Source: an uncultured virus (IMG/VR IMGVR_UViG_3300049491_000674) (lineage: Duplodnaviria; Heunggongvirae; Uroviricota; Caudoviricetes). From it: a DNA stretch of 64,000 bases. The stretch lies in IMG/VR virus record IMGVR_UViG_3300049491_000674. One strand, 5' to 3'. The notes below the pieces were generated by a model that saw nothing but the letters and a program-made list of their open reading frames with translations, searched no databases and had not been told where the DNA came from. Positions 4,020 through 63,114 of this stretch are shown one piece after another (the stretch's first letter is position 1; every line of letters starts with the position of its first letter). The position numbers were made by a program, and so were the translations under genes.

Positions 4020-4160
4020 ATGTGCAACAACCTGAGCGTCGTGAATCACTGTGGTGGCTGCGTTGCCTACGTCGTGAACGTGGGAAGCGAAGGCCGCTCC
4101 GAGTGCCGTGAGCCTGCCCGTAACCGCCAAGGCCGTCTGGCCTGCGTTGGAGCGTTATGA
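4020..4160 (+). CDS. small Cys-rich hypothetical protein (ends TTA-TGA)
   Basis: ATG 6 nt after class I promoter; overlaps next ATG. Confidence 0.5.
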   Translation: MCNNLSVVNHCGGCVAYVVNVGSEGRSECREPARNRQGRLACVGAL

Positions 4161-4602
4161 AAGTCGACGTCAAAAGCTTTGGTCTTGGTCTCACCCTGGC
4201 CAAGAAAAACCCCCACCAAACCGCGTACTTCCACATCACCGATACCCTCCCCAACGATGTCAAGAAGAGCGTGTTGAACTTGGCCGCCGTGATCATCGAT
4301 AACGGCTGGACCAAAGATGCGGCTGCCCGCACTGCGGAAGGGGATTCCGTCCTGGTTTTTGATCCAAAGGCTTGTTGCTTCTGTGCCCTTGGGGCTCTGC
4401 AAGTCTCTTTTGAAATGCACGAGATCGATCTGACGGACTCGGAGGGAGGGTCCAGCAATGAGTGGTTGCAGCTTTGTAGCCTGTTGGGCAAAAACCTTCC
4501 AACGAAGAGAGAGCAATGGGGCTTAGCCTCTACAACGATCTCCCGACGACCACGAAGGAAGACGTGATCCGTGTGTTTCGAGTAACAGGAGACCAGCTAT
4601 GA
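4157..4602 (+). CDS. hypothetical protein, frameshifted near 4490-4520
   Basis: CFCALGAL domain continues in another frame as LSLYNDLPTTTKEDVIRVF to an ATGA overlap. Confidence 0.6.
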
Positions 4603-4802
4603 AGATGCGCATTAGGCTTTGGGTTGAGTGCAGACCTTCTTGGGAGGCTGAGGGCCTCCCTTTGGACTCTGAGATTGAGGTGACAGGCGAACTGCTTCTG
4701 TCCATCTCGGAGCGATGGGATCTTCAGATCTTGAACTACCCCGACGCAAGAAAATTGCTCTGTGTTGCCCCACTCGGGCGAGGCTTCCGCCAGCGAGGGT
4801 AA
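4599..4802 (+). CDS. hypothetical protein
   Basis: GGAG RBS, ATGA coupling. Confidence 0.6.
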   Translation: MKMRIRLWVECRPSWEAEGLPLDSEIEVTGELLLSISERWDLQILNYPDARKLLCVAPLGRGFRQRG

Positions 4803-4803
4803 A

Positions 4804-4953
4804 ATGGTCGCTCCCTCTAAGGTGCCCTGCCCCTGCTGTGAGGAAGACACCTGTCTACCAAATGAAAAGGTTTGCTTCCTTTGCCAAGGAACCGAGTGTC
4901 CTGTCTTTGGGGCGTGTCGTCGAGCCCCCGAACCAGAGGACGACGATGCCTGA
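4804..4953 (+). CDS. small Cys-rich (Zn-ribbon-like) protein
   Basis: CPCC..CFLC..C..C pattern, packed between genes. Confidence 0.5.
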   Translation: MVAPSKVPCPCCEEDTCLPNEKVCFLCQGTECPVFGACRRAPEPEDDDA

Positions 4954-5188
4954 ACCAAAAGAAAAGACGCTCTACGCCATCTTCAACGTGTTGGACGGCA
5001 CCTTGTTGCCTCTGCTTACGGACAAGGGGAAAGTCTTTCCTCAGGTGCACTACACCCAAAAAGAGGCCGATGAGACGTGCGCAGCTGTCAACGAGCTGTT
5101 TAAGGGCAACCTCATCCTCCACGACCTTTTGGCGAAACAAGATCTAGGGGACAAAGCCTGGATCGTTCAGCCCTACAAGTCCGGGTAA
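4946..5188 (+). CDS. hypothetical protein
   Basis: GAGGA RBS. Confidence 0.6.
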   Translation: MPEPKEKTLYAIFNVLDGTLLPLLTDKGKVFPQVHYTQKEADETCAAVNELFKGNLILHDLLAKQDLGDKAWIVQPYKSG

Positions 5189-5230
5189 GAACCTGTTTTT
5201 GATCGTGGCCGTGGTCTATCTAGTAGGGAC

Positions 5231-5602
5231 ATGACCACCACATCGTTCCTCACGGCTGAGTACCAGACCATCCGCACTGCGGTGGGTACGCACCGTAAGC
5301 AGATCGAAAGGGCCTGCGATGTGCTCGACGCAGCCATCGCAGCTGCCAATATCCCGGTGGTCAACGGCTTCTACGCAGTCGACCTTCAGAAGGAAGGTTG
5401 GCGGTACCCGTCTATTGACCAAGCTCAACGAGAGCTGGAAGCTCTTCGAGACGACAACGGCTTCTACTGGGCGGAAAGCCGCCTCACGGACCTGGAGAGG
5501 CTTTTGGGCCTTGGGTGGGCGACGCAGACGCTCATCCCCTTCGAAGGGACGATTCCGGACGCCCACCCAGTGGTCAAGGACTTCTTGACCATGGCGGCCT
5601 TA
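5231..5602 (+). CDS. hypothetical protein (TTA end)
   Basis: Class I promoter; TTA 5600-5602 coincides with TAA of convergent gene. Confidence 0.7.
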
Positions 5603-6004
5603 GGTCGTGGCCTTGCTCTGACGAATTTCCGTAGAAACATACACGGAAAACTTCATCTGTTTTGCGATCAGGTGGAGGTCACGGACTCGTGTTCGGTGAA
5701 AAACACGTCCATCTGGAAGACGCAACTCGAAACGACCATCTGTGCCAACCTTGATGGTCGCTTTCAAGTTGAGGGGCAGGGCCCGTCGGGAAGACGGGGC
5801 AGCCGAAACGGGGGCATCCGTTACCAGCTCTTGGTAGAGGTCTTCCTTCGCCAAAGCCTTGAGGTCTTGGGTCAGTTGCTCCAGGATGGTTGCCGTTGCC
5901 TTCGTGGGGGGATTCCCCAAGATCTTGCGGAGAAGATCCTTGCGGACGGAGGAGTACAGAGCGGGGAGATGTTGAAGAATCGTCTGTTCGGGTTTTGACG
6001 CCAT
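5600..6004 (-). CDS. hypothetical protein
   Basis: ATG after GGTGTA motif. Confidence 0.65.
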   Translation of the reverse strand: MASKPEQTILQHLPALYSSVRKDLLRKILGNPPTKATATILEQLTQDLKALAKEDLYQELVTDAPVSAAPSSRRALPLNLKATIKVGTDGRFELRLPDGRVFHRTRVRDLHLIAKQMKFSVYVSTEIRQSKATT

Positions 6005-6084
6005 GATCCTAAGTACACCGAGATTAGCCATTATCGACTAAAAATCTGAAGGGCACTGAAAACGGTGTATCTAGATCAAGCAAA

Positions 6085-10011: not shown

Positions 10012-10211
10012 AAACGATGACTGCCGCTAAGCTCTTGGAGCAGCTCCTTATGGCTCGCATCAAGCACGGAGACAAGCTCGATACGATGTTGGTTGTCGTT
10101 GCCACAGGGCATAAGATGGACCCCTGGTATGAGAACCAGATCGAGGTTGCTGACGTGAAGGACCTCGCGGGTGAGGGATGCTTCTACATCGGCCGTGACC
10201 ACGACACCTGA
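10008..10211 (+). CDS. hypothetical protein
   Basis: ATGA coupling. Confidence 0.6.
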   Translation: MKTMTAAKLLEQLLMARIKHGDKLDTMLVVVATGHKMDPWYENQIEVADVKDLAGEGCFYIGRDHDT

Positions 10212-10497
10212 AGCTCTGGCGTTTCTCCAGGAGAAAAGGGCCCCCGCCCCTCTCTTGGACTTCGTTCGCTGGGCAGGGCATCGTCTAGAGCCTCATACTG
10301 AAGACCCCGAGGCATTCTTTATCGCGTATCAGCTTGCTCTGGCAGACCTTGCTCAAGGTCGAGCTGGGCTTCGAGGTAGTCTCGTAGGTAAACCACCTAG
10401 ATTCTACCTGCCCTTTACCGCTGCCGCGGACCTCGTTGCCCTTGCCTTTCATGGGGAAGCATTGGCTTCGGGGGTTCGAGCTGTACGCTCCGGGTTA
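10195..10497 (+). CDS. hypothetical protein (TTA end; TAA two codons later)
   Basis: ORF; start uncertain. Confidence 0.55.
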
Positions 10498-11133: not shown

Positions 11134-11559
11134 ATGAAGGTAACTAACATCTCCACATACAACCTGTACCTTCACGACCTGAGGGTCACTCACGCTTCTC
11201 AGGTCGAAGGGAGGCCAGGTGAGGACCGGTATCTGGGGCCGGGAGCTTCTGTTTATCTACCGAATACTACCGAAGTGGTTCGGTCCGCATACAAGGGGGA
11301 CCTTCGGAAGTGGCGAGACAACGGCCTTATTGACCTGGAGGATGAGCTTGTCCTACAAGCCAACGCTACTCCTGGGGACACTGTCGTATTGACCCATAAC
11401 TTTGGACTACCCCCTTCGGTCTATGTCTTGAAGCAGGTTGGTCCGAACTGGGTGGATGCTACAGGCACCGTGGATATCTCACACAACGCTCTGTTCACAA
11501 CAACCACGATTGTGAACACGCTTCTTGTGTCCCAAACCCTTCTTATCCGGTTGGTCTTA
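11134..11559 (+). CDS. putative virion structural protein (TTA end)
   Basis: Beta-rich; TTA 1 nt before next ATG. Confidence 0.65.
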
Positions 11560-12696: not shown

Positions 12697-14295
12697 ATGA
12701 CTGACGTCAGACACGACGGCTTTGGTTCGATCTTCGCAGTAGGTGCCACACCCACTGATCCCACTGGAGGGGCGTACGGTGGAGGCGGTGGAGGCTCAGG
12801 TAACGTTGTGGTCTGGGCGCCTTCCACCTACAGCTACCCAGATCCTCTGCCTCAAGGATGGCATCGAGATTTTTTGGTGGCTGTAGATGCGGTCAACAAC
12901 CTGACGGCTCCTTCCGCTATCCTTCAAACGATGGCAGATCCCCAAGAAGATGAAGTGATGCTTCCTGGTGGGACTTGGACGTTCAATAAGCCCACGACCA
13001 TCGCGGGTAGGGCTGTAGACTCAGGGACGGACACAGGTTTCAGAGCATACCAACAACTCCTGTACTTCTACACGGAGGGGGACTCGGCCAACCCTTGTAA
13101 GATCAATGGGTGTGTTGGCCTGAAGGATCTCTACTTCCGGTCGAACGAGAATGGATCCAACGTTCAGACGACACAGGATTTCCAGACAGTTAACCCCACT
13201 GTGTTGGTTGACGTAAATGTCACCGAGCTGACTGGGGTTGCGCTGAACAAGTTGGTCTACATTGATGGGGCAGGTTACTACCGCGTCATCAGCATTGACG
13301 GGACTCTGCTCTCATTGCGAAACGAAGGGTTCAACGGTAACGCAGGAGCTGGGGTCACGATCACAGCAGGTACAACGGTGTACCCAGACAACGCCGTTTT
13401 CTATATGTCTGATGGTAACTCGATCGAGTTCACGTTGGACAACACGGATTTCCACTTCGGGAATTATAGGTTCGGAACGTTCCACGTTGACCGAGCTGAT
13501 GATTGGGGGTCTTTGTCCGTCTACCTTACCAACGGAGCAGCTACACGTTGGTACGCATGGCGTGTTGACGGGTCTGTGGTCTTCACGACGGATGGTTCGG
13601 GCTGCTGGATTGGGTCATCTGCCTTCTTTGGTGAAGGGTATGTGGCGACCTACCCGATGGCGGGCTGCCAAATTCGAACCTACCAGCCAGTCATCAACCA
13701 ATGGGATCAGTACCAGCCCTACATCCCGTATCTACCAGACTCGCCCAACGACTGGCCAGATGGGCCTCCGGCAGCATACCACGAGGCTCTTGATCAGCTT
13801 GCTCGAAGGTTTTTCCGCCCGAGTCTGGCTCAGGTCACACTGAGTGCCCCCCAGATCACTAACTTGGCGACCAATGATGCAGTCCAGTTTGACACCTTTC
13901 TTGCCTCTACAAACGATGGGTTTTTCAACTGGATCAATCTTCAGCCTAATGGTCAAGTCCAACTTTGGTTTGGGGACAATTTGAACCGAGGGCGAAGCAG
14001 TTTCAAACTCGTTGGGAACTTGGGTAGTTTGTATGATGGGGCTATTGCCATACAATGGTGGGATGTGACAAACAACCGAGGGGTTGGAAATGTCACAGGG
14101 AATGTCGGGTCGGGTGTCCCTGGGGACGCGGTGGCAATCATCCCCTTTGAATACAACACTCCTCTAAATACCTACACTGTCTTTCAGTTGAGAATGGTAT
14201 TCACAGTAGGGGTGACACACATCGGAGAAAACACCTCTGGCGGTTTCATCCTACCTACCGCAACCGTAGAGCAACTTGGGAGTCCCCGTCTATGA
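12697..14295 (+). CDS. putative virion fibre/decoration protein (DGFGxIF N-terminus)
   Basis: 532 aa, beta-rich; shares WPxxPP..ALDxLAxR motif with 11561 gene. Confidence 0.7.
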   Translation: MTDVRHDGFGSIFAVGATPTDPTGGAYGGGGGGSGNVVVWAPSTYSYPDPLPQGWHRDFLVAVDAVNNLTAPSAILQTMADPQEDEVMLPGGTWTFNKPTTIAGRAVDSGTDTGFRAYQQLLYFYTEGDSANPCKINGCVGLKDLYFRSNENGSNVQTTQDFQTVNPTVLVDVNVTELTGVALNKLVYIDGAGYYRVISIDGTLLSLRNEGFNGNAGAGVTITAGTTVYPDNAVFYMSDGNSIEFTLDNTDFHFGNYRFGTFHVDRADDWGSLSVYLTNGAATRWYAWRVDGSVVFTTDGSGCWIGSSAFFGEGYVATYPMAGCQIRTYQPVINQWDQYQPYIPYLPDSPNDWPDGPPAAYHEALDQLARRFFRPSLAQVTLSAPQITNLATNDAVQFDTFLASTNDGFFNWINLQPNGQVQLWFGDNLNRGRSSFKLVGNLGSLYDGAIAIQWWDVTNNRGVGNVTGNVGSGVPGDAVAIIPFEYNTPLNTYTVFQLRMVFTVGVTHIGENTSGGFILPTATVEQLGSPRL

Positions 14296-14501
14296 GCACA
14301 CCATTCATTTACGTAAACGGGGATAAGACCAAATCTCCCGTCAAACCCTCTGAGCAAAAGCCAGGGACTCTGCTAGTCTTCGTCGACAAGATGGGACGTG
14401 AAACCCCCTTCAATGCAGGTAAGCTTATCGTTGCAGACCCTGCGAAGCGTCTTGCTACGTGGAAGAAGCGTTTGAAGGATAACACCCCTGAGGGGGCGTT
14501 A
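14292..14501 (+). CDS. hypothetical protein (TTA end; standard stop 14528)
   Basis: ATGA coupling. Confidence 0.6.
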
Positions 14502-16333: not shown

Positions 16334-16669
16334 TAAGGCTACCGACGCATGATCTTGAATGACCATCTCCGTCAGGATGAAGTTGCGCATCAGCTTGGGA
16401 GCCCACCCCTGCCGAAGTGCGAGACGGATCAGTCTGTCAACAACAGGCTTTCCCACGGGATCCAACTCAGGAAGCTTGTCCCGTCGGAATGCGGCCACGA
16501 AGACATGGCCTGGGTTTTCTTCGGGTTCGACCGTAACCACCAAGGTATCACGAATGGTCTCCCTAGACCCTTCCTTTGCAGGGAGCTGTCGACCTTCATC
16601 TCGAACCATGAATCGGTACGAGATCCCATCTACGCTAATAAGGCGGCTCCCCTTTTTGGGCATCGTCAT
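16334..16669 (-). CDS. hypothetical protein (TTA end 6 nt before tRNA)
   Basis: MPKKGSRLISVDG..IRLALRQGWAP; GGTGTA motif upstream. Confidence 0.7.
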
Positions 16670-22112: not shown

Positions 22113-22418
22113 ATGACCTGGTCTTCTGGCCTCGTGGAACGCCTCTCTAGAGGGGAAACGGTAGCCTTTCGCCCTCACGGGAATTCCATGACCCCCATCA
22201 TCAAGAGTGGGCAGCTTGTTACGGTGGAGCCGGTGCTCGATCCTTCGGGAGTTACCGTCGGAGAGGCAGTGCTCTGTAAGGTCAGAGGCCGTATCATGCT
22301 ACACAAGGTCACGGCGATCCGTGGGGGCCAGGTGCAAATCAGCAACAACCACGGCCACGTTAACGGCTGGACCAAAGTAGAGAATGTTTTTGGACGCCTC
22401 ATTAAGGTAGAACCATGA
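22113..22418 (+). CDS. S24/S26 peptidase-like protein
   Basis: PHGNSMTPIIKSGQ..MLHKV. Confidence 0.7.
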   Translation: MTWSSGLVERLSRGETVAFRPHGNSMTPIIKSGQLVTVEPVLDPSGVTVGEAVLCKVRGRIMLHKVTAIRGGQVQISNNHGHVNGWTKVENVFGRLIKVEP

Positions 22419-22654
22419 GCAACGAACTGCCCCCATTTGTCGCCCGTATCGGAAAGTACCTCCACGTCTCAGGTGACGAGTACATGGTGGTCTGTCTCAC
22501 ACGACACGGGCAGACAGCAGAGAAGATGATCGTCTACACTCATCGAGCCATGGAGTACTACGTGCTCCCAGAGACGACTTTTTTCGCGGAGGTTGAGTGG
22601 CCCGATGGGACCACTAAGCCTATGTTCGTCCAGGTAGACGCTCCGAAGGGCTTA
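22415..22654 (+). CDS. hypothetical protein (TTA end shared with convergent TAA)
   Basis: GKYLHVSGDEY..EKMIVY..F..VEWPDG..PMF, DUF1653-like pattern. Confidence 0.65.
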
Positions 22655-23116: not shown

Positions 23117-23413
23117 TAAAAACCGCTCCCAGGCACCGTACTGAAACTTGTACACCACGTTCGACTCGCGAAGCTCCACCTTGTCCCAGAAGCCCTCGGG
23201 GGTCTCGATGCCCATCTTGGTGAGCTGCGTTCGAAGACGGTCTGTGTTGAGCTTATCCTGAGACATCGGATCGTGCATGGCGGACCAGATGACCGTGTCC
23301 TCGTCGTCCGTCTCGAAGACCGTCAGGAAGAACTCTTTGAGTGGATGATCCCAGCCGCCCATAACTTCGACCTCACGAGCCCCCATAGGGGCCGTAAATT
23401 TCACTTGAGACAT
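23117..23413 (-). CDS. hypothetical protein (TTA end)
   Basis: TTA followed by RBS of next gene. Confidence 0.7.
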
Positions 23414-23574
23414 CAGCCGATCTCCTTCTTGCAAGCCTTCTTACCGGCTTGCCTAACCTTTGTTTCAGCAGCTTTTTCCTGCGCGTTACAAGAACGACGA
23501 GGAGCATGCCCGTGTCGAACTGACGTCAGTTTTGCTTGGTGGGTCTGACCCTGAGCTTTCATCCCGGTCTGCAT
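23413..23574 (-). CDS. small basic protein
   Basis: Class I promoter; TGATG coupling. Confidence 0.6.
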   Translation of the reverse strand: MQTGMKAQGQTHQAKLTSVRHGHAPRRSCNAQEKAAETKVRQAGKKACKKEIG

Positions 23575-23931: not shown

Positions 23932-24438
23932 ATGCCGCGACGAGAGTACCTATTCACCAACATGGTCTTGGGCAACCCGCGTCTTAGGTACTTCGTTGAA
24001 GGGTTGCAGCACGATGCGGGGGTGACCTCGTATGAACTGTCTGAGTCAGAGAGAAACCCATTCGTCTTTCGAGCGGTCGTTCAAGTTGGCCCGGAGGGGC
24101 TTGAAAACAAGGGTTTGGAGAGGGAGTTGTCCCCCTTTGAGAATGTCTACTTGCCTTTCCCTGTGCCCCCTCCTCAGTTCTTCGAAGTTTCGTACGTCAC
24201 TACGGGGTGGGCCCATCCTATCCGACCGTTCCCCTCGGTTGGTACGTGGGTCACAGATGGTGGAGGTGAGTTGTTTCAGATTCTTCGGATCGACCCAGCC
24301 GACAACTTCGTGTTGGTTCTCACTGAAGACGGGGAGCGGGTAAAACGCCACCCAGATTGGCTGAGGAGGACGATGACGATTCCCACCCCAGGGGCATTCA
24401 AGATCTGGCGTCAGATGGGACGATCCAAAGCGTTTTTA
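23932..24438 (+). CDS. hypothetical protein (TTA end; TGA two codons later)
   Basis: GGTGTA motif upstream. Confidence 0.6.
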
Positions 24439-31481: not shown

Positions 31482-32291
31482 ATGGCCCTCTCGCTGCCCC
31501 CAGACCATGGTCCCGCTCGGGATGAGGCGATTTTGGCCTATATCCAGGCCAAAGAATACACCGCAGAGCTAAGTCCTGTCACCTCTAGTTACAACGGGCA
31601 TTCAGCAACGTTCTGGGTGTTTCAAGATGCTCTGAAGATCGAGGGTGTACGCGTCAATGTCTCGGCTCGGCTTCAACAAACGATCGCGGACATGCTCGGT
31701 TGTTCATTGATGACCGCTAAAATCGCTGATCTTGCTTGGATGCAAAGGGGGTGTACGATAACGCCCTGTACCAAACAAATCACATCGGCCACGTCTGCCA
31801 TGATCGACAACTCTGGTCGAATTGACGCAGCCATCAGCCGGTTGGCGGCACCTCCGGTTGGGATCATCCAAACGGTTGGAAAGCACTGGTTGATCGACAA
31901 CGATCTGGCTATCAAGTCTGGGAAAGCCGAAAACTACGGCTGGCACTTCGAAGGCTCAAATTTTCAGGGCCTCACAGGAGAAGTCAACGCGAGCCTACAG
32001 AAAGACTCGAAGGGGCAGTACGTTCGGCTCATTCAAGGTCGGGGTTGGGCGCACGACATCGATCACGTGGACTACAGCCAGATTTGCGTCCTCATGGCTC
32101 AATCGGTCGTCGTAGACGGGGCTGAGATGGAGTTGGCTGCCGTGTTGACCAACCCAGAGCTGGCTCCGTTGGGAAGTCACCAAGGGAAGATGTCGGTCCT
32201 ACGTCAGCCGGGCGTACCTCAGGCGCAACTTGTTGAAATGTTGCTCCCTCCCATCAACATCGTCGTTGAGAGCGACAGCTATCAGGTGTTA
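31482..32291 (+). CDS. hypothetical protein (TTA end)
   Basis: 269 codons; TTA 2 nt before next GTG. Confidence 0.75.
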
Positions 32292-32293
32292 CC

Positions 32294-32542
32294 GTGGAGA
32301 AAGAATTCCTTCGGCTTTTGGAAGCGGTTCGGGCAATCAGTCCTGAAGCCTCGGTCGAGTTCTTTCAGGGACCTGAGACTCATGAGTGGCTGATTAAGGT
32401 TGCCGTTCGAGATGTCATTCTCGTAAAGACAGATGTGGGGCCTTTGGGCAAAGTGACGCACGAAGCGGCCAAGAAGATCGAAGGGATGTCTCAGCGCATT
32501 CTCATGGCCGTTCGGCCAACGGATCCACCACCTTCCCGCTTA
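32294..32542 (+). CDS. hypothetical protein (TTA end)
   Basis: TTA precedes next GGTGTA motif. Confidence 0.6.
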
Positions 32543-42458: not shown

Positions 42459-42484
42459 CCATTTTGTGGTGTATACAGGGTCCC

Positions 42485-43579
42485 ATGTTTGATTGGACCC
42501 AGTACACAGGCAACATCAAGTGGCTCTCGTCCCGAACGTTCTTCATGACCAGGCACGGATCTCATGCCTACGGCACGAACCTGCCCACGTCGGACCTTGA
42601 TCTGCGGGGTATCTTCGTTGCCCCAAAGGAGTACTACCTCGGGTTTACCCAGGTCGTCGAACAGGTCACCTGCAAAGAGCCAGACCTTGTTGTGTTCGAT
42701 GTGCAGAAGTTCTTCAAACTTGCCGCTGATGCAAACCCGAATGCCCTAGAGCTTATCTTTACGGACCCTTCGGACCATCAGATCGTAACTCCTCAAGCTG
42801 TGATTTTGTTGGAGAATCGACATCTGTTCTTGAGCCGTAAAGCAAAGTACACCTTCTCTGGGTATGCCCATTCCCAGATGAGGCGTATCTTGACCCACCG
42901 TCGGTGGCTACTTGATCCCCCCAAGAAACCCCCAACAAGGGAAGACTTCGGGCTCCCTCAACGAACGGAAATTCCGGCAGATCAACTGGCGGCGGCTCGT
43001 GCTGCCGTACTCAAGCAAATCGATCGTTGGGGGTTCAAGGATCTTGAGGACATTGATCCGGCAACTCGACAGAGGCTGATGGATCGGTTTGAGACCAGTC
43101 TCTTGGAAATGACCCGGTGGACGTTCACGGATCGTGAAGAGAAACAGTGGGTGGCGGCTGCCGACTTCCTTGGGTTCTCAACGAACTTCATTGAGGTCCT
43201 GGACAAGGAGCGACGATATGAATCCACCCTAAGAAACTGGGCACAGTTCAACACGTGGGAGCGTGAACGTAACCCCGCTCGTGCTGCCATTGAAAAGAAG
43301 TTTGGGTATGACTGCAAACACGGGATGCACCTTGTTCGTTTGTCTCGTCGCTGCCTAGATCTTCTCAAGACTGCGGACCTTCAAGTTCGTTGTGATGATG
43401 CCGAAGAACTGCTGGAGATCCGGAATGGGGGGTGGCCTTTTGAGCAGCTGCACGAGTGGTTCAATGCGCAAGCTGCTTTGATCGACGAAGCCGAAAAGAC
43501 GTCCCCACTGCCACGAGCGGTTGACCAGGCAAAACTCGACAAACTTTGCGTTACGATCGTGGAGTCAATGCTGAAGTTA
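42485..43579 (+). CDS. Pol-beta superfamily nucleotidyltransferase (YcgL/RlaP-like; TTA end)
   Basis: HGSHAYGTN..SDLDLRG, ANPNALE, GYDCKHGMHLVRL, LLEIRNG. Confidence 0.85.
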
Positions 43580-44305: not shown

Positions 44306-44494
44306 ATGGAACTCGAACTCGATGCCCTCCATGATCTGGCATCCGAAACGGATGAGATGCGAGATCTGACCCAAAAGATCCACAAGGAAGTTCAGAGAAC
44401 ACCCCCCAAAACCTCCATGGTGGTGCGGAAGGTGTTGACCCCCCTAGGCATTTCTACTCTGACCCCTCGCATCAAAATCGCCCAGGGCACTTTA
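44306..44494 (+). CDS. hypothetical protein (TTATG overlap with next gene)
   Basis: TTA 44492-44494. Confidence 0.6.
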
Positions 44495-45309: not shown

Positions 45310-45837
45310 TAACGCCAGAACCAAGTTCAACGCCTTGAGCCCCTTTTCATGAAATGGTGTGATGTCGACCCCCGACATCATCTCGGCAAAAGCCTTTTCA
45401 TGCCATTCTTCGTGTGGGAGAATTCGTTGGAAAACGTCTCGGATGTCCGCCGGAGCATCAAGGTCAAACGCGATCTCTCGGATCCGATGGAGACGCATGT
45501 TTTCCGCATGAAATCCAGCGGCAACGGCCTTCTCAAACGAGTCGACGGCAGGAAGGACTTCTTTCCAGTACCGTTGCTCGGCTGAGGCGTTCTTTTCGGG
45601 GGTGATGCCTCTGGCGTCGAGGAGTTCCTTCATCCACGTGCCGTGAAGGGCCTCTTGCATCAGAATCTTCGCGATGTCTTGCCACTGCTTTGGAGTCATG
45701 TCTGACCCGAAACGAATGAGCAGCTCAGACAACAGATGCACGGCTGCAAGCTCCCCCACATACTGCCGCTTAAGCCAAGCGGTGAGTTTCTGCGGGTTGC
45801 TCTTGGTCGCTTTCCACCACGCATGAGTCGTTTGCAT
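45310..45837 (-). CDS. ferritin-like diiron protein (TTA end)
   Basis: GE..QEALH..AE..HEEWH ExxH pairs. Confidence 0.75.
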
Positions 45838-45903
45838 GATCCCCCTATACACCCGTTTGCCTTATTTTCAAGGGGGTGACGTGAGGGCAGAGATCAAGAA
45901 AGG

Positions 45904-46689
45904 TAACGCAAATTCTTTAGTTGGGACCCATAGGTCCCAAGTCTCATCCCAAGCCATGTACTCCGGAGTAAAGAAAGCGTACCCACCCTGTCTCCAGCCA
46001 GACCCCCATGAGTTCTTCACGAGGAACTTACCGTCAATATACCCTACGACGATCATGGCATGACCTCCAGCCGTCGCCCCTTTCGGGGTATCCACAGTCC
46101 AAGGTCCGCTGAAGTCCATGAAGGGGTGATCGATGAGGGTCCCAAAGACGACCGGCTTCATGGCTCGCAGTGCGGCAACGATGTCGTTGATTCTCTCTTC
46201 CCCATTGGAAGTGATGCGGTAGTAGCTGTGGATCTTGTGTCCGAGAGCTGCCCGCTGGGCCAACATACTCGGGGAAACGAAGACCTTATTCTCTTCGTAG
46301 GGCCACACCGACTCTTCCGGGATACCGAAGCGAGTCAAAACCTCAAAGCAAGACCTGATGTACGTGCCCTCATCCTCACCAAGAGTCCCATCCAGAGTTC
46401 GAGCCATCGCGTAGACAAAAAGCCGACTGAGCTGAGGGACAGGTCGTGCTTCTCTGCCCTCCACTTCAGCTCGAAAGCTCTCTTCGATGTTCGAGACAAT
46501 CTCGACCGCATCTGCTGTCGCATTCCCAGCACACGCAGAGAGATTAGCCTGATGGGTCTCAGTGCAAAACGGTCGAAGGTCTACGTCTCCGATCGCCAAA
46601 CGTGTCGGGGCTACCTTGAGTAGCTCCTTGACGTTTAGGTCCGTTTCCCCTTGTGTTAGATCTCTCTTGTAGCCAAACGCTTGGGTCAT
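45904..46689 (-). CDS. C1 (papain-like) cysteine peptidase (TTA end)
   Basis: HQANLSACAGNA, LSRLFVY, GGHAMIVVGY, VKNSWGSGW. Confidence 0.88.
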
Positions 46690-46758
46690 CGCCTTCCACA
46701 AAGCATAGGAAGACCACCACGCCCGTTAAACCTCTTGTCATTTGATGGGGGTAGTACC

Positions 46759-47533: not shown

Positions 47534-49273
47534 ATGCCCGTATCCCCTATCTGTCTCGTTAAAGATGGTGCCGGACCTTTCGTGTCGACGCCCAACGGCG
47601 TTAACGTAACCGCCAGCAACACGATTTCGATCAAACTCAACGACATTACGGGTGTTGCTGATTGGTACCTTCAAGTTACTGGTACGGATGAGACTTCGAC
47701 GAACCCGACTCTGACGGGTGTGAATATCATCACCAGTTTGGTGGCTTCCCCCGGAACGGTTGTCACGTTTACGATGGCGGCAGGAGCTGGGCGAGCATTC
47801 CTCTTTAAGTCCATTGTCACAGGTCCAGGCGGCCCGGTAGAGACTTCGTTTGCGATCTATGTCCTCACGGTCCACGGCTTTAGGGTAGGGGCCACAGGGG
47901 AGGAAAGAGAGGGGAACACAAATTTTGGTTGGGCATCGACCCTCAACCCTCTCATCCGCACTGGAGCTGGGGTCATCAGATTTGACGACTCTCTTACGTC
48001 CCCCAGCACAGGATCGGCAACTACCCAACAGATTATCGATTACCTCAAGGGGATTACCCAGACGGGTGGGGACCTGATTATCTTCACCCCCGCAGCTCCC
48101 CACATGGGGAATGTTTTTGGGGACTGGGCTGAGCTGTGTTCGTATATCGGTACACTACCTGATGGGAGTAACCCTAAAATCAGGTTTACAGCAAACTTCA
48201 CGATCCCCTCGGTGGGGATGCCCCCCACTGGGTGGCCGCAAGGAAAAGGCACCTGGGAGTCAAATAGCCTCAACACAGGAGCGATTGTAGTCGACATCCC
48301 CGATGGGGTGAAAATCGACATGTTGATGGGGATCAATAACGGCCTCGGGGTCAACATACACCCGTCTTCTGAGTACGGTGTCTTCAATTGGTCTGAGTTT
48401 GCCCCTGGGATGGACCCTTGGATTCTAGCAGTTGGGCAAGGGGCCCATCTTGCGAACCAGGGTACCAAAGCAGCAATCATCTCACCTGGGATACCGTTCA
48501 CCCAGACCTATGTGGTGATTGCCTTCAATCAGGCGACGAATGCAATCCCGCCTCCCAATACTGCCCCTTGGGTCAAGCTTTCCAACACAGACGTTGCGAT
48601 CTTGTCCCAAGTCGTATGTGGACCATTTGGAGGCGGACAAGACGGCTGGATTGTTGGTACAGGCTCCAGTCTGATTTACATCAACGGAGCGGATTCTCCG
48701 GACCCTTTCATTACTCCTGGGCCTTTTGTGGCGCACTACCCTGCTGGATGGGTGGGGCCAGCTCCTTCGAAAGTTCAGGGGTCCGCCGCTCGAAACATCA
48801 ACTACGATGATACCCTGGCTCTGCCTGCAACGGGGGCAACCAACACCCAGGAAATCATTGACTTTCTGAAGTCAGGGGTTGGAGCGGGTCGACCCCCAAT
48901 CACAACTACCATCTACGGAGAGTATAGTTCCGCTGATGTGCCTGGTTTGTTGGACGCCCCTTTCCCCATCACGACAGCAGGAACCATCACAGGGTTGAGG
49001 ATTTTCCGCCGTCGTCCCGGATCTGGAATTATCGGAACAAGAGTGAACGTGAAGCTGAATGGGGTCAGTCTGTTCGTTGCTGCCCCACCCCCACCTGAAG
49101 TGTTCCCTATCGATGGGGCCTATGCTTCTTCCAGTGCCTTGACTTCGACTCCGGTAGTTCCTGGGGATCGTGTAGAGTTTTACCTGGAATCTGTCGAGTC
49201 TTTCTCAGCGGGACCCACCCCTCAGGAAGATGGCCCTGAAGGGTTGACCGTTTACCTAGACCTCGGCCCCTTA
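47534..49273 (+). CDS. putative virion structural protein (TTA end)
   Basis: G/T/P-rich; internal repeat IxF/YDDxL..TG..QxIIDxLK. Confidence 0.7.
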
Positions 49274-54557: not shown

Positions 54558-55160
54558 TAACTTGAACTGCTTAAACGCCTGCGAGCCCACAGCTCCGCGG
54601 GCGTTGCTGTTTTGGTAGTGCCCCGTTTGGGTGTATAGTTGGTTAACGGTCCCTTCCATCGTGTGGAATCGGATCTGGCCGATCCTCATCCCCGCGTAGA
54701 CCCGGATGGGGTGCTGCACGATGACTTCCAGCGTGTATTGTCCGTCGAACCCAGGATCCCCGTAGCCTGCCGTAGCGTGAATCTGAACGAAAAGACGGCC
54801 AATCGACGACTTCCCGTCCACGATGGGAACGTACTTGGTAGTCGAGATACGTTCGACCGTATGCATCAAGTACCCGATCCCAGGCTTCAAGACCCAACCG
54901 CGTTGTGGGTCGATCTTGGTTTTGAGTACCCTTGGTTCCTCACGTACGTCCAAAACTCTGGAGGTGGGTACGATGAATGTTCCGTCGTCGGGTTCAGAAA
55001 TTGCGTGATTGGTTGTCCAAGGAACGTAGACGCCTACCTCCTCTCCGAGAGTCAGGTCGTAGCTCGTAGGATTGAGCTGTTTCTCGCTCCAAGGGTCAAT
55101 TTTGATGTCTCCCGCTTCGATGGCAGCAGCGATTGAAGCGTCGGTCAAGATTCCAGGCAT
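54558..55160 (-). CDS. dcd: dCTP deaminase (TTA end)
   Basis: QLNPTSYDLTLG, DGKSSIGRL, TAGYGDPGFDGQYTLE, GMRIGQ. Confidence 0.9.
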
Positions 55161-55204
55161 GAGCCCCCATACACCACGAAAGCTCTTGTACGTGCGTATA
55201 AGTG

Positions 55205-56116
55205 ATGTCAGGCATCGGAACAGACGGTTTTGGCAGCTTGTTTCGCTTTGGCGAAGGTGCTGGAGGCGGAGGAGGCTCAATCGCCTGGTCCCCTTCTGGG
55301 GCCGGGACCGCTACGACGTGGGATGATGTTCGGGGTATTCTCGCTGATACGCGAAGCCCCATGGTCATCAACATGGTCGACTCTCAAGGCACCTACAACA
55401 TCACAGGCACCACGGACCTGAAGTTTTCTACCCTTGTTGCTGCCCCTGGGATCAACGCAAATGTCCAGGTTGCAGATGGGGCCCAGCTTGTAAACGGAGG
55501 GATCAACCAACTCGTTTCTGGGTTGTTCAATGGAGGGATGGCAGTCACATTCAACTCTACGGGAGGCTCGCCCAATCCGTTGTTTTGGGATTCACAGGCA
55601 GACCCAAGCCGCTTCGCTCCGTTCGCCTTTGGTGGGGGTGCTACCCTTCAAAACAACGGGACCGTACCAGTCATCAATGTGCGGACAAACCCAGATGGCC
55701 TACTTGTGTTCATCCTGGAAAATACAGCGGGTATCTTGACTGGTACCGGGCCGATCATCCACTTGGAAGATGGAGCGGTTTTGTTTCTCTCCTGGGGAAA
55801 TAACGGGGCTTCGATGTCCTTTGACCCCGGCTTCGTGACGGCAGATAACCCGGCATCCAATACCATTGGAATCCTCTCAGTTGGGGGCTTCGACTTTGAT
55901 CGTATCTCCACTTGGGTGGGGGTTGCAGGGGCAACGGTCATCAACAACCCTTTGAGTATGGAGGGGGGCTCTGGACCTTCTGCTTACCGCCCATTTGGTG
56001 CGATCGGCCCCCTTGTTCGAGGGACGCACTACTGGGATGCAGACCTCGTACCCCCACGTCCAATTTTTTGGAATGGGTCATCCTTTGACGATGCACTTGG
56101 GGTTGGTCCTGTTTTA
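55205..56116 (+). CDS. putative virion protein (DGFGxLF N-terminus; TTATG overlap)
   Basis: Paralogous N-terminus; ends YWD..PIFWNGSSF. Confidence 0.7.
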
Positions 56117-56655: not shown

Positions 56656-57202
56656 CTACACGTATCCGCCTTTACCTCTCAATTCTCGACGATGTTCAGC
56701 CCCGTTGCGGTTGATGTGATCGATAGCGAGAAATTGTATGTGTTTGTCCTTACAACACGCGCAAAAAGGCTCTATCCCTCCGCTGTAAATGCCTCAAGAC
56801 AGCAAGCTTTTTGGCCCATCTGCTAGCTCGGCTTCGCTGAGCATCTTTGTTCTCCGATAGAGCCGCCATGAGCGGGGGCTTGGCAGGCTCGTATATCCGG
56901 GTCGCTACGTGACCGTAGATGTAACGCTGCTTATTGCCGAATTTGTTGTAGTTCGGCAGGGTATTTCCGCAACCACAGCCACATAGGATCTGCTTGGCCG
57001 TGAGCACTCGCTGCGGGACATGTCCTTCTGGCTTCTTTTTCCCGTGCCCGAAGATGAAACGAAGAGTGACACCGTTTGCGTTCCATTCTTTGAGACTCCC
57101 CCCGCAGCCACACCCACAGAGAATGTCCCGTGCGCTTTTAAGCTTCCGTTTTCGCCAGTCTTCTAGGTACTGACGCCGGGCTTCAGGGTCTTTGTGTGGC
57201 AT
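56656..57202 (-). pseudogene. CGCGCG-repeat protein with frameshifted, truncated HNH domain
   Basis: Two LCGCGCG..GH repeats; +1 frame gives CACC..FLAIDHINRNG..HRR. Confidence 0.6.
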
Positions 57203-58054: not shown

Positions 58055-58057
58055 GCC

Positions 58058-58666: not shown

Positions 58667-58728
58667 GCAAATCCTTCCTCGACAGTAGCTATTTTTTTGA
58701 TCGACCTGCATCAGAGCCTAGTACGAGA

Positions 58729-58914: not shown

Positions 58915-58935
58915 CTTACAGGGCCCTCCTGGCCG

Positions 58936-59271
58936 TCACGCCTGGGGCATCTTCTGAGCAACGCCTGTGGTCAATAGGGCGTAGATGAACAAGGTAGAGA
59001 GTGCGTCATCCGACAGGTCAGCCGGGAGGGTGATTTTTACCCTCCGGTTTTGGCTCAAGCCCTGGGTGATCAGGCCGATCGTCGCGTACAGAGAGGTGTG
59101 CCCGGTCTCGCGGGCCATTTCCTGGACCATTTCGATCGGCTGCCCACGATAAATGGCGGGTTCCGCACCACCCTGAGGGATCCAGATGGCGGAAGGAATG
59201 TGGCGAACGTTGGAGTCGAAAACCCGAGGAGGAGTGTTGATCATGACACCTTTGTGGGTGGAAAAATGCAT
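58936..59271 (-). CDS. hypothetical protein
   Basis: ORF. Confidence 0.6.
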   Translation of the reverse strand: MHFSTHKGVMINTPPRVFDSNVRHIPSAIWIPQGGAEPAIYRGQPIEMVQEMARETGHTSLYATIGLITQGLSQNRRVKITLPADLSDDALSTLFIYALLTTGVAQKMPQA

Positions 59272-59549
59272 GGGCCTAGTTTTCGCTGTGAGGGGTTCGT
59301 TTTCTTTACCGCCCTCCAAGCTGGAGCCTTTCCAGTGGATTCAACCGAAACTTCCTGTCGGGAGTCCTCAACGAAGCTGACCGAAGAGACCCTGTACTCT
59401 CCGACTACACTGAGAACCTCAGCTCTCCCGTTGAGAATCCGCTCAAGCTTGAAGTTTAGCCTGATGCGGTCTCCTTGCCTTAGAGGGGGTAGAGTCAGTT
59501 TCACCTTTGGGGCTGGAACTTCGAGAATGAGCAACGAAGCGAGATGCAT
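59241..59549 (-). CDS. hypothetical protein
   Basis: GGTGTA motif upstream. Confidence 0.6.
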   Translation of the reverse strand: MHLASLLILEVPAPKVKLTLPPLRQGDRIRLNFKLERILNGRAEVLSVVGEYRVSSVSFVEDSRQEVSVESTGKAPAWRAVKKTNPSQRKLGPCIFPPTKVS

Positions 59550-60218
59550 GTTCACCCTTACACCAGGCTAATCAACAAAGAGGTTGCAAACTGCTCTCAA
59601 AGCGGTGTACAGGGGGGTTGTTCATCCCTTCTCGTCCAGAAGGGTCTGGTTACAAGGCTCCTTGCTCCTTCGGGAGACAGAGAGACTTCCTCGAAGGAGG
59701 AGATTTTTCTGAAAAGCCCCGTGGTTTAGGTGGGTCGGACGACCGTAAGGTTGACCTAAGTGGTTTTTCCTCCGAGAGGGGAAGAATCGAAGGAAGCTTC
59801 AGGTGGGAAACCTGAAAGCCCCTCGAACGAGTAGGAACCAAGAACACGAAGGTCTTTCCCAGCTGTCTGGATCTTCCGACCCTCTTCTGAGGGACTCTTC
59901 CGAAGCCTAGAACAACTAAAACTACTCTCTTTCAGATCCTTCTCTTTCATTCTCAAACTCATACTTCTTTTAGTGATCGAAGCTTAACTGCAACGAGAGC
60001 TAGTAGAGCAGGTACAGCGGATAGAGTAGAGACGGCAGATAGCGCAGTAGCAAGTGGCTCTAGTGCACTAAAGACGTCGGATACACTGGATGTAGTGGGT
60101 CAAGAAAGAGCGCGAATGAGCTGAGAAGGCTTGTTTCTCGCTGTGAGAACCTGTAAGATGGGAGTCTCTTCTTGAGAGCCACCTGTACTCCTCTTTGAGT
60201 AGGTCGCCTTCCTGAGGG

Positions 60219-60662
60219 ATGGAGCTTCAAATGAAGAACGCAGTAGCCCTAACGACCTCCTCTGAGGTCGGGAAGGTCGTAGATTATGCGATTGAAACGA
60301 ATCGCATGGTGTGCCACCTCACAGGAGAGCTGGATGTCTGCAAGACCCATCTTCGTCGAGAGGGTGTGGAAAAAGCGGAGTTTTTGAAAACCTCCTCAGC
60401 AGAGATCTCTGGCCTCTTGGGGAAAGCCCAGATCATTCTCACGCGACCTCAGGTGAGAATCCGAAAAGGGGTTGACCTTCTAGCTGCGGAGGCGGCATTC
60501 CCTCCAGGAGTTTTTGACCTCCTCTTCGTGAAGAAGACAGTGGTGGAGCTAGCGCCAGATTTTGAGGATAAGCTTCGTTGTCTACCCCTGATTCAACAGC
60601 GGGCGATCCGAAATCTCATTCAATTCGCTGCGTCGACTCCTCGTGTCAACCTACCGAAGTAA
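60219..60662 (+). CDS. hypothetical protein
   Basis: ORF with RBS. Confidence 0.7.
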   Translation: MELQMKNAVALTTSSEVGKVVDYAIETNRMVCHLTGELDVCKTHLRREGVEKAEFLKTSSAEISGLLGKAQIILTRPQVRIRKGVDLLAAEAAFPPGVFDLLFVKKTVVELAPDFEDKLRCLPLIQQRAIRNLIQFAASTPRVNLPK

Positions 60663-61218
60663 CCCGCTCATGGTTTTGAAGTGGGAAGAAGGTGGCGATG
60701 TAGGCCCAAAGGATGGTGGAGTGGCTTTCTGTTCCCGAGGAGGATCCTACTTCAATGGCTCTATCCCAGAGCAACTTGGAGGTAGTTCGGTCACCCTCAG
60801 CCAGCTTTTTCACGGCATCAAACCAAAGACGGAGGGTCATAACGTGGACCGCTCCCTCGGGGCTCCCTTCAGGCAGCCTCTCTGTAATCCTTTGACTCTC
60901 ACGGTAAGTCCTCGTTGGGTCTGACCCATTTGCCCACGCCAACCAAGCCATCCCCACTGTCTCAAAAAGGTGGGCTTCCCAGTTCTCTTCAGATGGGACC
61001 CCATCCAGCACAAGAATAGGTTGACCCAAGATTTTCTGCATAGCGGCTCGGGACAAGGTGTCCTGCATCGAGGTAGGGCTCCCCATGACATCCAAAGCCT
61101 TTCTGACCGCGAGGAGGGCGTCCGTAACGCTGCCTCGCCCCTCTACCACACGGCCAGCTGCCTGCTGGGCAGCCATCTCAGCCATCAGTTCTTGTAGACC
61201 GTTGTCGTTGTTAGGCAT
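60646..61218 (-). CDS. hypothetical protein
   Basis: ORF. Confidence 0.65.
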   Translation of the reverse strand: MPNNDNGLQELMAEMAAQQAAGRVVEGRGSVTDALLAVRKALDVMGSPTSMQDTLSRAAMQKILGQPILVLDGVPSEENWEAHLFETVGMAWLAWANGSDPTRTYRESQRITERLPEGSPEGAVHVMTLRLWFDAVKKLAEGDRTTSKLLWDRAIEVGSSSGTESHSTILWAYIATFFPLQNHERVTSVG

Positions 61219-61484
61219 AGGCCGGAAAAGTATGTGGCCCCGACGGGCATCATCAGGGCCACATAAAAGGGGACCATGGCAAGTCCGTCCCGAGATCAAT
61301 ACACCGACATGAAAACCTTTGCAACGGAAGATAGCGTTTTTACAGCCGATTGTCCTCCCGCCCTTACTTCCTTGACATCAACCACGCAGTTCCTGTAGTT
61401 TTACCCTTTCGTTTTAGGTATTCTGGGCGGCACCCCAGGAATGTTTTTGATCCCTAAGACCCGTCAACTAGTACGGAGGCAACC

Positions 61485-62285
61485 ATGGCAAACCCGCTCA
61501 CCATTCCAAAGAACGATCACGAGATGGCCCGCGACTGGTCAAAGTTCATCGGCCAGACCCTTCGGGGCCGGAATCGTATCTCATTCAACTTCGAGGACGT
61601 CTTCCAGGACATCCTCTTGAAGCTCGTGACCTCAAAGGTCGTCGAGAAGTTTTGGGCGGGGGTGTCTGAACGCTCGCACCCTTTGACGGTGACGGCGGAT
61701 GAGGCCGCAAAAATGCTCGGCATTTCGTTGGGGGACTTCATCTCCTTTCAGATCGAGTCGAGCGATTCGTTGACTCCTGTCAACGGGAAGGGTCAACCGA
61801 TCCCAGATGGGTTGGGGTATTCGAGCCCTGCGGCCTTGTACCTCTTCGCGGATGTGATCGTCCTTGGGGCCTCGGTTGTTTTTGCTGGGCAAGGGGTTCA
61901 GCAGCTTCCGCCTCCGAAGGACCCCACGGTCTCCCAGTTTCGAGCGTACCTGTTGGTGGCGATCCACAACCACGTCTCGAACGTCTGTCGTCGTCACGCT
62001 CGTAAGTTCAACAAGGAGCACGCTCCTGATCACTTCGCTTGTTTTCGTACCTCTGAGGGCACGATCGAGTTCGAAGGTTCTCTTGTCGACGAGGGAGCAG
62101 CGGCGGACATAGAGAATGGGGCTGAGGCTGGCCTCATGCTGCGACGCACCCCTGGCATCATGACCAAGAAGTCGAAAGACGAGAAAACTGTCTTCGACCT
62201 CATTCACGAAGGTTACTCCATCGCAGAAGCAGCACGGGCGTGTCGTCTGACCCGTCATGAGCTGCGAGTGCTGACCCGCGAGTTA
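61485..62285 (+). CDS. sigma-70/ECF-like factor with insertion (TTA end)
   Basis: FEDVFQDILLKL, FRAYLLVAIHNHVSNVCRR, EGYSIAEAARAC; class I promoter. Confidence 0.55.
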
Positions 62286-62310
62286 TCCTTCGATAGCAGT
62301 TAGGTTGGTG

Positions 62311-63114
62311 ATGGATCACGTTGCCAGCCTACTGCACAAGGTATCGGGCCTCCGACGGAAGATTTGGTCGAGTCTTCCTTGGGGGTACCGTCTTGCCACG
62401 ATTTTCCTCGCTCTCGATAACTCAAGTATCGAGGCGTGGGGACGTCAGATGGGGGCTCTGATGCTCCAGTCTGGGGTGACAGACCTTCCCGACCCTGGTC
62501 CAAAGTGGAATCCAGCAAAGCCCAACCCCAAAGATCTTCCCCGGTATTATCTCAACGAGATGGCCAAGAAGGCGTACGGGATCGCGCTTAAGAGTTCGAA
62601 GAACCCTGAGGATGCTGGGGATGCGATGATGGATGTGGTGGTGGACTTTCTCAGTAAGTCCACCCTCAAGGCCATGCCTGCTAAGTCGGCTATCAGCTAT
62701 GTCTTGAAAGCTGTTGACTGGAAAGCGGGGGCTCTTCGGAAGAAGAATAAGGGGGATCGCAGCACTACGATTGACGACGACGGGGAGGAAACTACCCTTG
62801 ATCTCGTGGACGACGCGTTTACGTCCAACCCCTACTGGAATGAGAACCCCAGGCAGTTTCGCGAGTTGGCCGAAGCTTTCCCTGAGGATGTTTGGGATCG
62901 TGCTGTTGTCCCCGCTTTGAAGCGAGAGCACCCAGACATGCCTCTCTTTTTCGAACTTCTTGGGGATGGGTACAACGCCAAAGAGATCATTGAGGAGGGG
63001 ATGCTTCCCCACTTCGACGCCGCTGAGTATAAGACCCCTGTTCAGACGTGGAATGCCAAGGTGCAGAAGATCAAGATGGTCCTTCGTGACATCGCTCAGC
63101 GAGCGGACAACTTA
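62311..63114 (+). CDS. ECF sigma-like protein (TTA end shared with convergent TAA)
   Basis: AYGIALKSSKNPEDAGDAMMD, SYVLKAV, DGYNAKEI. Confidence 0.5.

Follow-up and report, generated by a model that had tools for sequence, protein, structure and literature searches.

UUA as a probable stop codon in a lineage of large uncultured phages

Whether a phage can use UUA, ordinarily a leucine codon, to end translation is the question raised by a 64-kb stretch of DNA (the window, that is, the whole of the stretch analyzed) from the uncultured virus record IMGVR_UViG_3300049491_000674 of IMG/VR. The window has a GC content of 55%, is gene-dense on both strands and encodes two tRNAs, and its matches to Pfam and PHROGs identify it as a piece of a large phage rich in RNA-repair genes. 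An original prediction, made from the letters alone, was that TTA marks the end of translation here; the positions of the triplet, the ends of homologous genes, the replication of the pattern in a related contig (G001), and the exchange of TTA for standard stops between orthologs all agree with it. Judging from the sequences, UUA very probably signifies the end of translation, and not leucine, for about one gene in five of this phage lineage (21 of 101 in the window and 100 of 353 in G001), where it would act beside UGA, UAA, and a reduced contingent of UAG.

Position of TTA in the genes of the window

Genes were called with a codon-usage model trained on the window, in which TTA was given a neutral score. 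Under the standard code, this procedure yields 102 genes (19,560 codons) that contain 25 in-frame TTA, compared with 165 CTA, 359 TTG, and 151 TCA, which bears out the early remark that CTA and TTG are common in genes. Eighteen of the 25 TTA lie at a relative position of at least 0.73 (P = 4e-6), four are found in the first 18% of their open reading frames (ORFs), upstream of alternative start codons, and three are located in mid-ORF, two of which coincide with the stop of a facing gene, while the last one belongs to an ORF of 53 aa. On inspection, none of the 25 stood as an interior codon, and the absence of UUA from gene interiors is one of the marks of its reassignment. The 14 longest ORFs (6,574 codons) harbor 6 in-frame TTA, 43 CTA, and 115 TTG; five of these TTA are at relative positions 0.89 to 0.98, and the remaining one (40218) is upstream of the ATG at 40329. 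In their two other reading frames, these ORFs contain TTA frequently, so that there is no avoidance of the triplet itself. Among the ORFs of at least 200 aa, 7 of 13 in-frame TTA fall in the last tenth (P = 1e-4), and the ORFs of 866, 575, and 532 aa are devoid of in-frame TTA, as had been reported.

When TTA is added as a fourth stop, 101 genes are called and 87% of the window is coding, with tight spacing from each gene to the next. The genes end in TGA (54), TTA (21), TAA (16), or TAG (10), so that all three standard stops remain in use, as had been claimed. The choice of triplet matters, in that trial stops at CTA, ATA, TAT, TCA, or GTA break up the long ORFs, whereas TTA leaves them nearly intact. 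The early estimate of about 20 TTA-ended genes was sound, although the list that came with it omitted those closing at 4523 and 56786. All of the listed sites exist in the sequence, and all but one close a called gene; the exception, 4155, is trivial, since TTA is followed there by an in-frame TGA and no called gene ends at it.

The segments that run from the terminal TTA to the next standard stop do not look like coding sequence. Their mean score is -0.043 per codon, compared with 0.156 for genes, and they resemble the tails found after TGA or TAA. The tail scores lower than the last codons of its own gene in 19 of the 21 cases, the two exceptions being tails of 1 and 2 codons, and tails of 31-137 codons would enter neighboring genes, a tRNA, or a structured RNA. 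At 5600-5602, 22652-22654, and 63112-63114, facing genes share one stop triplet, TTA on one strand being TAA on the other, and the TTATG stop-start overlaps noted early on at 44492 and 56114 appear in the gene calls as gaps of -1. Calling with table 11 makes all 21 TTA-ended genes among the 101 overrun their ends, 17 of them by 4-137 codons and 4 by 1-2 codons; where the overrun is long, spurious overlaps appear, and small genes as well as an RNA gene are masked.

Ends of homologous genes and related phages

The gene for dCTP deaminase (dcd; 54558..55160, - strand, 200 aa, stop 54560-54558) ends in AFKQFK followed by TTA, and all 17 of its relatives in IMG/VR stop within a few residues of that point, with C-termini such as KQFEKKT, RQFKS, KQFK, and KQF. 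In one of the related large phages, G007, the alignment of the ortholog reaches residue 200 of 200, and its TGA lies one codon further on. Comparable ends are found for the RlaP-type nucleotidyltransferase gene (42464..43579, +, stop 43577-43579), which matches phrog_388 over residues 19-367 of 371 and whose G007 ortholog aligns to residue 370 of 371, and for the papain-family (Peptidase_C1) gene (45904..46701, -, stop 45906-45904), whose orthologs end within 3-8 residues, with TAA in G001 and TGA in G003; the PHROG profiles for the RlaP-like and the peptidase genes likewise finish at TTA. Hence the alignment of dcd, the C1 peptidase, and the nucleotidyltransferase with homologs, which had been proposed as a check, places the ends of the relatives at the TTA.

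The same comparison was generalized by carrying six of the window genes with a terminal TTA on to the following standard stop and aligning the products with five records of related phages. The TTA is crossed in none of the 14 alignments, and the stops of the relatives are 0-18 residues away. The conserved 269-aa gene (31482..32291, +, stop 32289-32291) has orthologs in G001, G002, G003, G005, and G007, and none of the five alignments goes past TTA; the G001 ortholog is TTA-ended too. For the 579-aa fiber-like gene (47534..49273, +, stop 49271-49273), the TGA of the G001 ortholog comes one residue beyond the end of the alignment, and the query still has 2 residues ahead of TTA, while the alignment with G002 is an N-terminal-only match that is uninformative on the gene end. 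For a second 269-aa gene (62305..63114, +, stop 63112-63114), the G007 ortholog has a 14-residue tail and then TAG, with 15 residues left in the window before TTA. Between window and G001 orthologs, TTA is exchanged with TGA, TAA, or TAG at the same C-terminus in six pairs, an interchange for which a search had been suggested, and is common to both partners in one pair. By dcd, by ortholog ends, and by these swaps, UUA thus sits where homologs carry a termination codon, which is a second mark of its reassignment.

G001 is an IMG/VR contig of 322,633 bp (58.6% GC; 68% complete by the tool's estimate) that was reached via a fiber-like protein, and it reproduces the pattern on a larger scale. Its 169 ORFs of at least 200 aa (78,377 codons) contain 95 in-frame TTA, distributed over successive tenths of the ORFs as 11, 1, 1, 3, 1, 2, 1, 3, 7, and 65; the probability of finding 65 or more of the 95 in the last tenth by chance is 2e-42, whereas CTA (1,253), ATA (435), and TTG (1,305) are flat along the ORFs. 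The four-stop model gives 353 genes (TGA 146, TTA 100, TAA 56, and TAG 51) compared with 326 for the standard model, with a higher summed score (18,986 vs. 18,266) and a higher coverage. TTA-ended genes of G001 match those with true stops in spacing to the next gene, in tail length, and in the rate of chance in-frame neighbors. All 13 seemingly interior TTA examined are borders between two genes; in the largest such case, the match to the orthologs of G003, G005, and G007 is split in two, and in G007 the two parts are in different frames. Histograms obtained by leaving out one stop at a time were noisy, as ORFs fuse, and were used qualitatively only.

G003 (57.4% GC, 34 TTA), G005 (58.4%, 42 TTA), and G007 (59.7%, 32 TTA) are related large phages with a GC content like that of G001, and they served as standard-code controls. 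TTA use is flat along their ORFs, and the four-stop model performs worse than the standard one. Relative to the pooled controls (12 of 108 in the last tenth), the share of TTA in the last tenth is raised in G001 (Fisher test, P = 9e-18) and in the window (P = 8e-4). The window phage is not more similar to G001 than to the standard-code G007, with identities of 40.5% and 56%, respectively, for dcd and of 48.5% and 54% for the PTH2-family peptidyl-tRNA hydrolase, which indicates that the trait is patchy within the phage group. Interior TTA are present in other dcd-bearing phage loci and in 50 bacterial loci at 53-65% GC. G002 (48 kb, 64.5% GC) contains no in-frame TTA, and TTA use therefore gives it no class; the loci picked up with the 269-aa protein, five in number, were too short for classification, and two of them, examined over their whole records, are standard. 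A search for further TTA-stop relatives among viral and metagenome contigs with an alignment query returned G001 only, plus an uninformative contig of 7.4 kb at 65% GC, and a search with the peptidase as query gave no pattern match. Searches against cultured phages with tblastn yielded no matches or distant ones only, the window phage being without a close cultured relative, and an exact 44-mer of the window had no counterpart in IMG/VR. The last-tenth statistic is cheap and could be applied to all viral and bacterial collections to find hosts.

Readings of the terminal UUA

That TTA arose from TAA or TGA by an error of sequencing, assembly, or base modification, or that the window has been altered, is the least probable of the readings considered, even though a single base separates TTA from either stop. 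In genes of either orientation, it is the coding strand that shows the effect, a distinction that an error of sequencing, assembly, or base modification would not make. One freshwater-sediment run, the probable source, carries the whole window, and two freshwater runs of another study carry parts of it; the contigs of the former are identical to the window over 43001-63000 (20 kb), and those of the latter show no differences over the matched pieces, including the TTA at 43577, 45904, and 62283, in a comparison of contigs, not reads, in which rare variants would not show. Contigs thus cover three of the sites at which an inspection of reads had been called for, and G001, an independent public contig of another collection, shows the pattern as well. 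The original prediction had also allowed for +1 slippage at a hungry UUA followed by termination at an overlapping TAA or TAG (T-TAA or T-TAG). An A or a G does come after TTA in 11 of the 21 cases in the window and in 49 of 100 in G001, but C or T does so in the other 10 and 51, respectively; the window counts are 5 A, 6 G, 6 C, and 4 T, in agreement with the early statement that about half of the sites are TTA-C or TTA-T. In addition, the +1 frame stays open for 3 to 279 codons at the TTA-C and TTA-T sites of the window, G001 has fewer TTA-A than any other context (3 of 100), and the codons that precede TTA are varied, with no slippery pattern, so that slippage is disfavored and keeps a very slight chance. 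It is also highly improbable that TTA remains a normal leucine codon of very low frequency, read by a scarce tRNA as in the case of bldA, with genes that run to the next standard stop through unconserved tails overlapping their neighbors. TTA is rare across all the related phages, and a short tail would be harmless at the 8 of 21 sites where a standard stop follows within 8 codons. Nevertheless, such scarcity leaves unexplained the location of TTA at exact homology ends and its swaps with TGA, TAA, and TAG in orthologs; it also does not account for the end-skew of the window and G001 when three relatives of equal GC are flat, or for the tails of 31-137 codons that overlap genes, a tRNA, and a structured RNA and score as non-coding.

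A different possibility, unlikely but deserving more credit, is that UUA is unassigned, served neither by a tRNA nor by a release factor, so that the ribosome stalls and the protein is freed by an ArfB-like factor, by drop-off followed by a PTH2-like hydrolase, or by transfer-messenger RNA (tmRNA). The positional and homology evidence fits this idea as well as it fits a true stop. In the search for tRNAs and release factors that had been recommended, no tRNA-Leu(UAA) was found among the 39 tRNAs of G001 (whose record is 68% complete), in which the leucine anticodons are GAG, UAG, CAG, and CAA, and no release factor was found in the window or its relatives. By comparison, G003 and G007 each carry a tRNA-Leu(UAA), and no tRNAs were found in the G005 fragment. 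The window phage has a PTH2 peptidyl-tRNA hydrolase and G001 an ortholog; that protein is also present in G007, where TTA is an ordinary codon, and it is therefore not specific to the trait. Bacterial rescue acts poorly on ribosomes stalled within an intact mRNA, and tagging by tmRNA destroys the product, both of which count against an unassigned UUA. Selection would hardly be expected to leave 21-28% of genes, including structural ones, dependent on rescue. Finally, the TTA-ended genes are spaced from their neighbors as are those with true stops, down to the 1-nt TTATG overlaps, which suggests prompt and orderly termination.

For UUA as a true stop, the proposed scenario, modelled on the organelle precedent, is that GC pressure would have put the codon out of use with loss of its tRNA, and that it would then have been captured by a release factor of the RF2 type whose reading of the second base had become relaxed (U-A/G/U-A). 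As TCA and TTG are common inside genes, an RF2-type factor that also accepts U at the second position is the best fit. To our knowledge, the natural code changes reported in bacteria and phages are all stop-to-sense or amino-acid swaps. The literature searched, in which subscription journals were outside coverage, gave sense-to-stop changes in mitochondria and plastids only, and the early statement that no bacterial or phage UUA stop is known holds within that coverage. A fourth stop codon in a phage lineage would show that such capture is possible in a large genome dependent on bacterial translation, and it would be a sign of a factor with a new specificity, whether a release factor or one of another kind.

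Several known systems share features with this one. Streptomyces species have bldA/TTA control, and high-GC bacteria such as Micrococcus luteus have unassigned codons; there too GC pressure makes UUA very rare and leaves little or none of its tRNA, and by analogy rarity and tRNA loss are likely to be the first step to capture. In those bacteria, in contrast, TTA is, where it occurs, an interior leucine codon, whereas here it is located at gene ends and interchanges with stops. Stop-recoded phages, among them crAss-like and Lak phages, read TAG or TGA as an amino acid by means of phage suppressor tRNAs. The window resembles them in that table 11 mis-calls its genes and that it carries a phage tRNA(CUA) and has a lowered share of TAG, but the change is in the opposite direction, from sense codon to stop, and TAG still ends 10 of its genes. 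The labyrinthulean (Thraustochytrium) mitochondrial code is NCBI table 23. In these mitochondria, the UUA stop goes with a Ser204 change of RF2 (mtRF2a), and UUG stays leucine via tRNA-Leu(CAA) (PMC12574857). Similarly, UUA alone would have been lost as a leucine codon in the window phage and would be used beside the standard stops, and the 68%-complete record of G001 yielded tRNA-Leu(CAA) but no tRNA-Leu(UAA); the difference is that those mitochondria have very few genes and an mtRF2a known to be mutated, while the window belongs to a double-stranded DNA phage with hundreds of genes in which no release factor was found. The same source describes UUA and UCA as stops in peDinoflagellate plastids and UUA and UUG as stops in the mitochondria of Marsupiomonadales and Pseudoscourfieldia, and links organelle UUA stops to the Ser204 change of RF2 (for UUA, or UUA and UCA) or to a changed RF1 (for UUA and UUG) (PMC12574857). 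These cases resemble the present one in that UUA would have passed from sense to stop and that the change was recognized from codons placed where homologs end; in the organelles it is tied to a change of a bacterial-type RF2 or RF1. They differ in that a second codon is affected, following the UYA pattern (RF2 type) in the plastids and the UUR pattern (RF1 type) in the mitochondria, whereas TCA (151) and TTG (359) are common in the genes of the window and UUA alone is affected.

Some observations nonetheless weigh against a UUA stop. No release factor was recognized among the 101 products of the window; PF00472 (RF1/RF2/ArfB) was not found in G001-G008, records that are 9-100% complete by the tool's estimate, nor were PF03462 (PCRF) and PF03464 (eRF1) in G001 and G002. 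The window holds only 2 tRNAs in 64 kb, and a tRNA-Leu(UAA) may be encoded elsewhere in the genome of this phage. Of the 8 sites where a standard stop is close, 4 have it within 3 codons, and at each of the 8, taken gene by gene, leucine and a short tail are possible. TTA is rare in the standard-code relatives, at about 0.48 per 1000 interior codons; about 9 would be expected in the window, and interior depletion alone is therefore only modestly significant there. The 50 bacterial loci that share the protein family of gene 17073-17870 (Sorangium, other Myxococcota, Planctomycetota, Paenibacillus, and others) are without a clear skew of TTA toward gene ends, with two short loci (L115 and L127) leaning late on 4 and 7 TTA. 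The case for a UUA stop rests on the position of TTA, on ortholog ends, and on replication, not on interior depletion alone.

Given the patchiness of the trait and the lack of a release factor in the phage sequences, we infer that the factor is supplied by the host; granted that UUA is a stop, this is about an even bet, and an unrecognized phage product is a less likely source. In that case, phages of 55-59% GC would bring to light a change scarcely visible in the genes of a high-GC host. We consider it possible, but doubtful, that UUA as a stop is a weapon wielded through a phage factor or a host trait of wide reach rather than a passive relic. If a phage factor made UUA a stop during infection, UUA-bearing host messages would be truncated and TTA-free phage genes spared, which would amount to host shut-off through a switch of genetic code. 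If it were a host trait, an uncultured and probably high-GC bacterial lineage would read UUA as a stop, revealed only by its lower-GC phages, and this would be the first sense-to-stop code of a free-living organism.

TTA-ended genes and other features of the window

The eight sites at which genes had been said to run far into a neighbor (5600, 11557, 16334, 22652, 23117, 32289, 49271, and 54558) all close called genes. The gene at 5231..5602 (+) has its stop at 5600-5602, which is also the TAA of the facing gene 5600-6031(-); the standard code would add 131 codons through that gene, and the tail scores 0.07 compared with 0.22 for the body. The gene at 11134..11559 (+) stops at 11557-11559, followed by G and the ATG of the next gene (11561), and its 50-codon standard-code tail (score -0.08) would overlap that gene by 149 nt. 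On the other strand, the gene at 16334..16669 (-; stop 16336-16334) ends 6 nt before tRNA(CUA), and its tail of 137 codons (score -0.13) would go across the tRNA and the next gene. A 79-aa DUF1653 gene (22415..22654, +) with the Pfam domain at residues 13-63 stops at 22652-22654, the TAA of the facing gene 22652-22834(-), and would otherwise extend by 98 codons and overlap two minus-strand genes. For 23117..23434 (-; stop 23119-23117), the 36-codon tail scores -0.16 and the body 0.31. Downstream of the conserved 269-aa gene, the next gene starts with GTG at 32294, and the gene that follows the 579-aa fiber-like gene begins at 49294. The last of the eight is dcd, which adjoins a structured RNA.

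The remaining TTA-ended genes have mostly shorter tails or rest on gene call and tail score. A DUF6197-like gene (4157..4525, +; TTA at 4523-4525) has a 13-codon tail that is non-coding by score. The genes at 10171..10497 (+; stop 10495-10497) and 23932..24438 (+; stop 24436-24438) have TAA and TGA, respectively, 2 codons later and are weak cases alone. Gene call and tail score identify a small gene at 14292..14501 (+; stop 14499-14501), the gene at 32294..32542 (+; stop 32540-32542), a ferritin-like/COQ7-like gene at 45310..45852 (-; stop 45312-45310), and a 304-aa gene at 55202..56116 (+; stop 56114-56116), which forms a TTATG overlap with the next gene. Another such overlap closes the small called gene at 44306..44494 (+; stop 44492-44494). 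The gene at 56786..57202 (-; stop 56788-56786) and a 266-aa gene at 61485..62285 (+; stop 62283-62285) were also obtained by gene calling, and the separate-study contig covers the latter site. The TTA of the second 269-aa gene is the TAA of a facing GIY-YIG gene, 63112-63366(-).

Of the tRNA genes, one at 16237-16327 (-) encodes a class-II tRNA of 91 nt, closest to tRNA-Tyr, with the anticodon CUA of the amber suppressor type, while the tRNA(CUA) of G001 is a class-I molecule of 75 nt. The PTH2 gene (16666-17073, -), with orthologs in G001 and G007, is next but one to it, and a suppressor-type tRNA is located near PTH2 in all three phages, with the anticodon CUA in the window and in G001 (305946-307877) and UCA in G007 (302161-302866). 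The pair looks like a conserved module across three related phages. It was rejected as the basis of the trait, as G007, in which TTA use is standard, has tRNA(UCA) beside PTH2. A tmRNA was called by ARAGORN in G003 (119344-119701) and in G007, and none was detected in G001.

TAG accounts for 10% of the stops in the window and 14% in G001, compared with 24-30% in the controls, and a link of tRNA(CUA) or TAG suppression to the TTA stop is uncertain. In G001, the PTH2 gene, which itself ends in TTA, has one in-frame TAG, at a site where the window and G007 have alanine. The genes of the window yielded no in-frame TAG, and a read-through screen there returned off-frame shadow matches only. TAG still ends 10 of the 101 window genes, with non-coding tails in 8 and the other two in frame with the next gene, namely 1023-1724 (TAG-ATG at 1374-1379) and 38129-39445 (with a 7-codon spacer, 38663-38683). 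Read-through fusions are possible at these two given tRNA(CUA), although 2 of 10 is also the chance level, and in-frame coding extensions are no commoner after TAG than after other stops in G001.

The gene at 17073-17870 (-) encodes a 266-aa protein of a large unannotated family, whose 595 relatives are mostly about 400 aa long; Sorangium chromosomes encode proteins that are 54-57% identical, and the window copy lacks the first approximately 130 residues of the family. Searches of Pfam, PHROG, and PDB sequences with this protein were all without a match. It is the sole gene near PTH2 that is common to the window and G001 but not to the controls, and it was considered as a candidate factor, then dropped because the family is widespread in ordinary bacteria.

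Other Pfam and PHROG matches in the window include an endolysin (M15_4 and a peptidoglycan-binding domain), dCTP deaminase, a Ro60-like protein, the RlaP nucleotidyltransferase, a CCA-adding enzyme, a LigT-like 2'-5' ligase, PTH2, GIY-YIG endonucleases, and glycine-rich fiber-like proteins. The 866-aa protein (51369-53966, +), which consists mostly of Gly/Ala/Ser/Thr-rich repeats, is probably a fiber; its gene has no TTA in frame and 14 in the +1 frame, and megablast against cultured phages gave no match for it. One base past the TTA of dcd begins a strongly structured RNA (54385-54557, -), whose two ends are joined by a long stem; behind it comes a terminator-like hairpin (-86.8 kcal/mol, z -8.7, a value equalled in none of 200 shuffles). 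No match to this RNA was found in Rfam, and, as the phage encodes a Ro60-like protein (40329-42053), it is a candidate Y-RNA-like partner of that protein. Genes for RNA repair and tRNA care are dense at 18696-20288, 28484-31447, 40329-43576, and 47046-47528, and comprise a metallophosphoesterase, HAD_SAK_1, the CCA-adding enzyme, LigT/2'-5' ligase (which also matches the Acb1 family), the Ro60-like protein, RlaP, and a tRNA-ligase-CPD-like domain. This set suggests a contest with host defenses that cleave tRNA or RNA.

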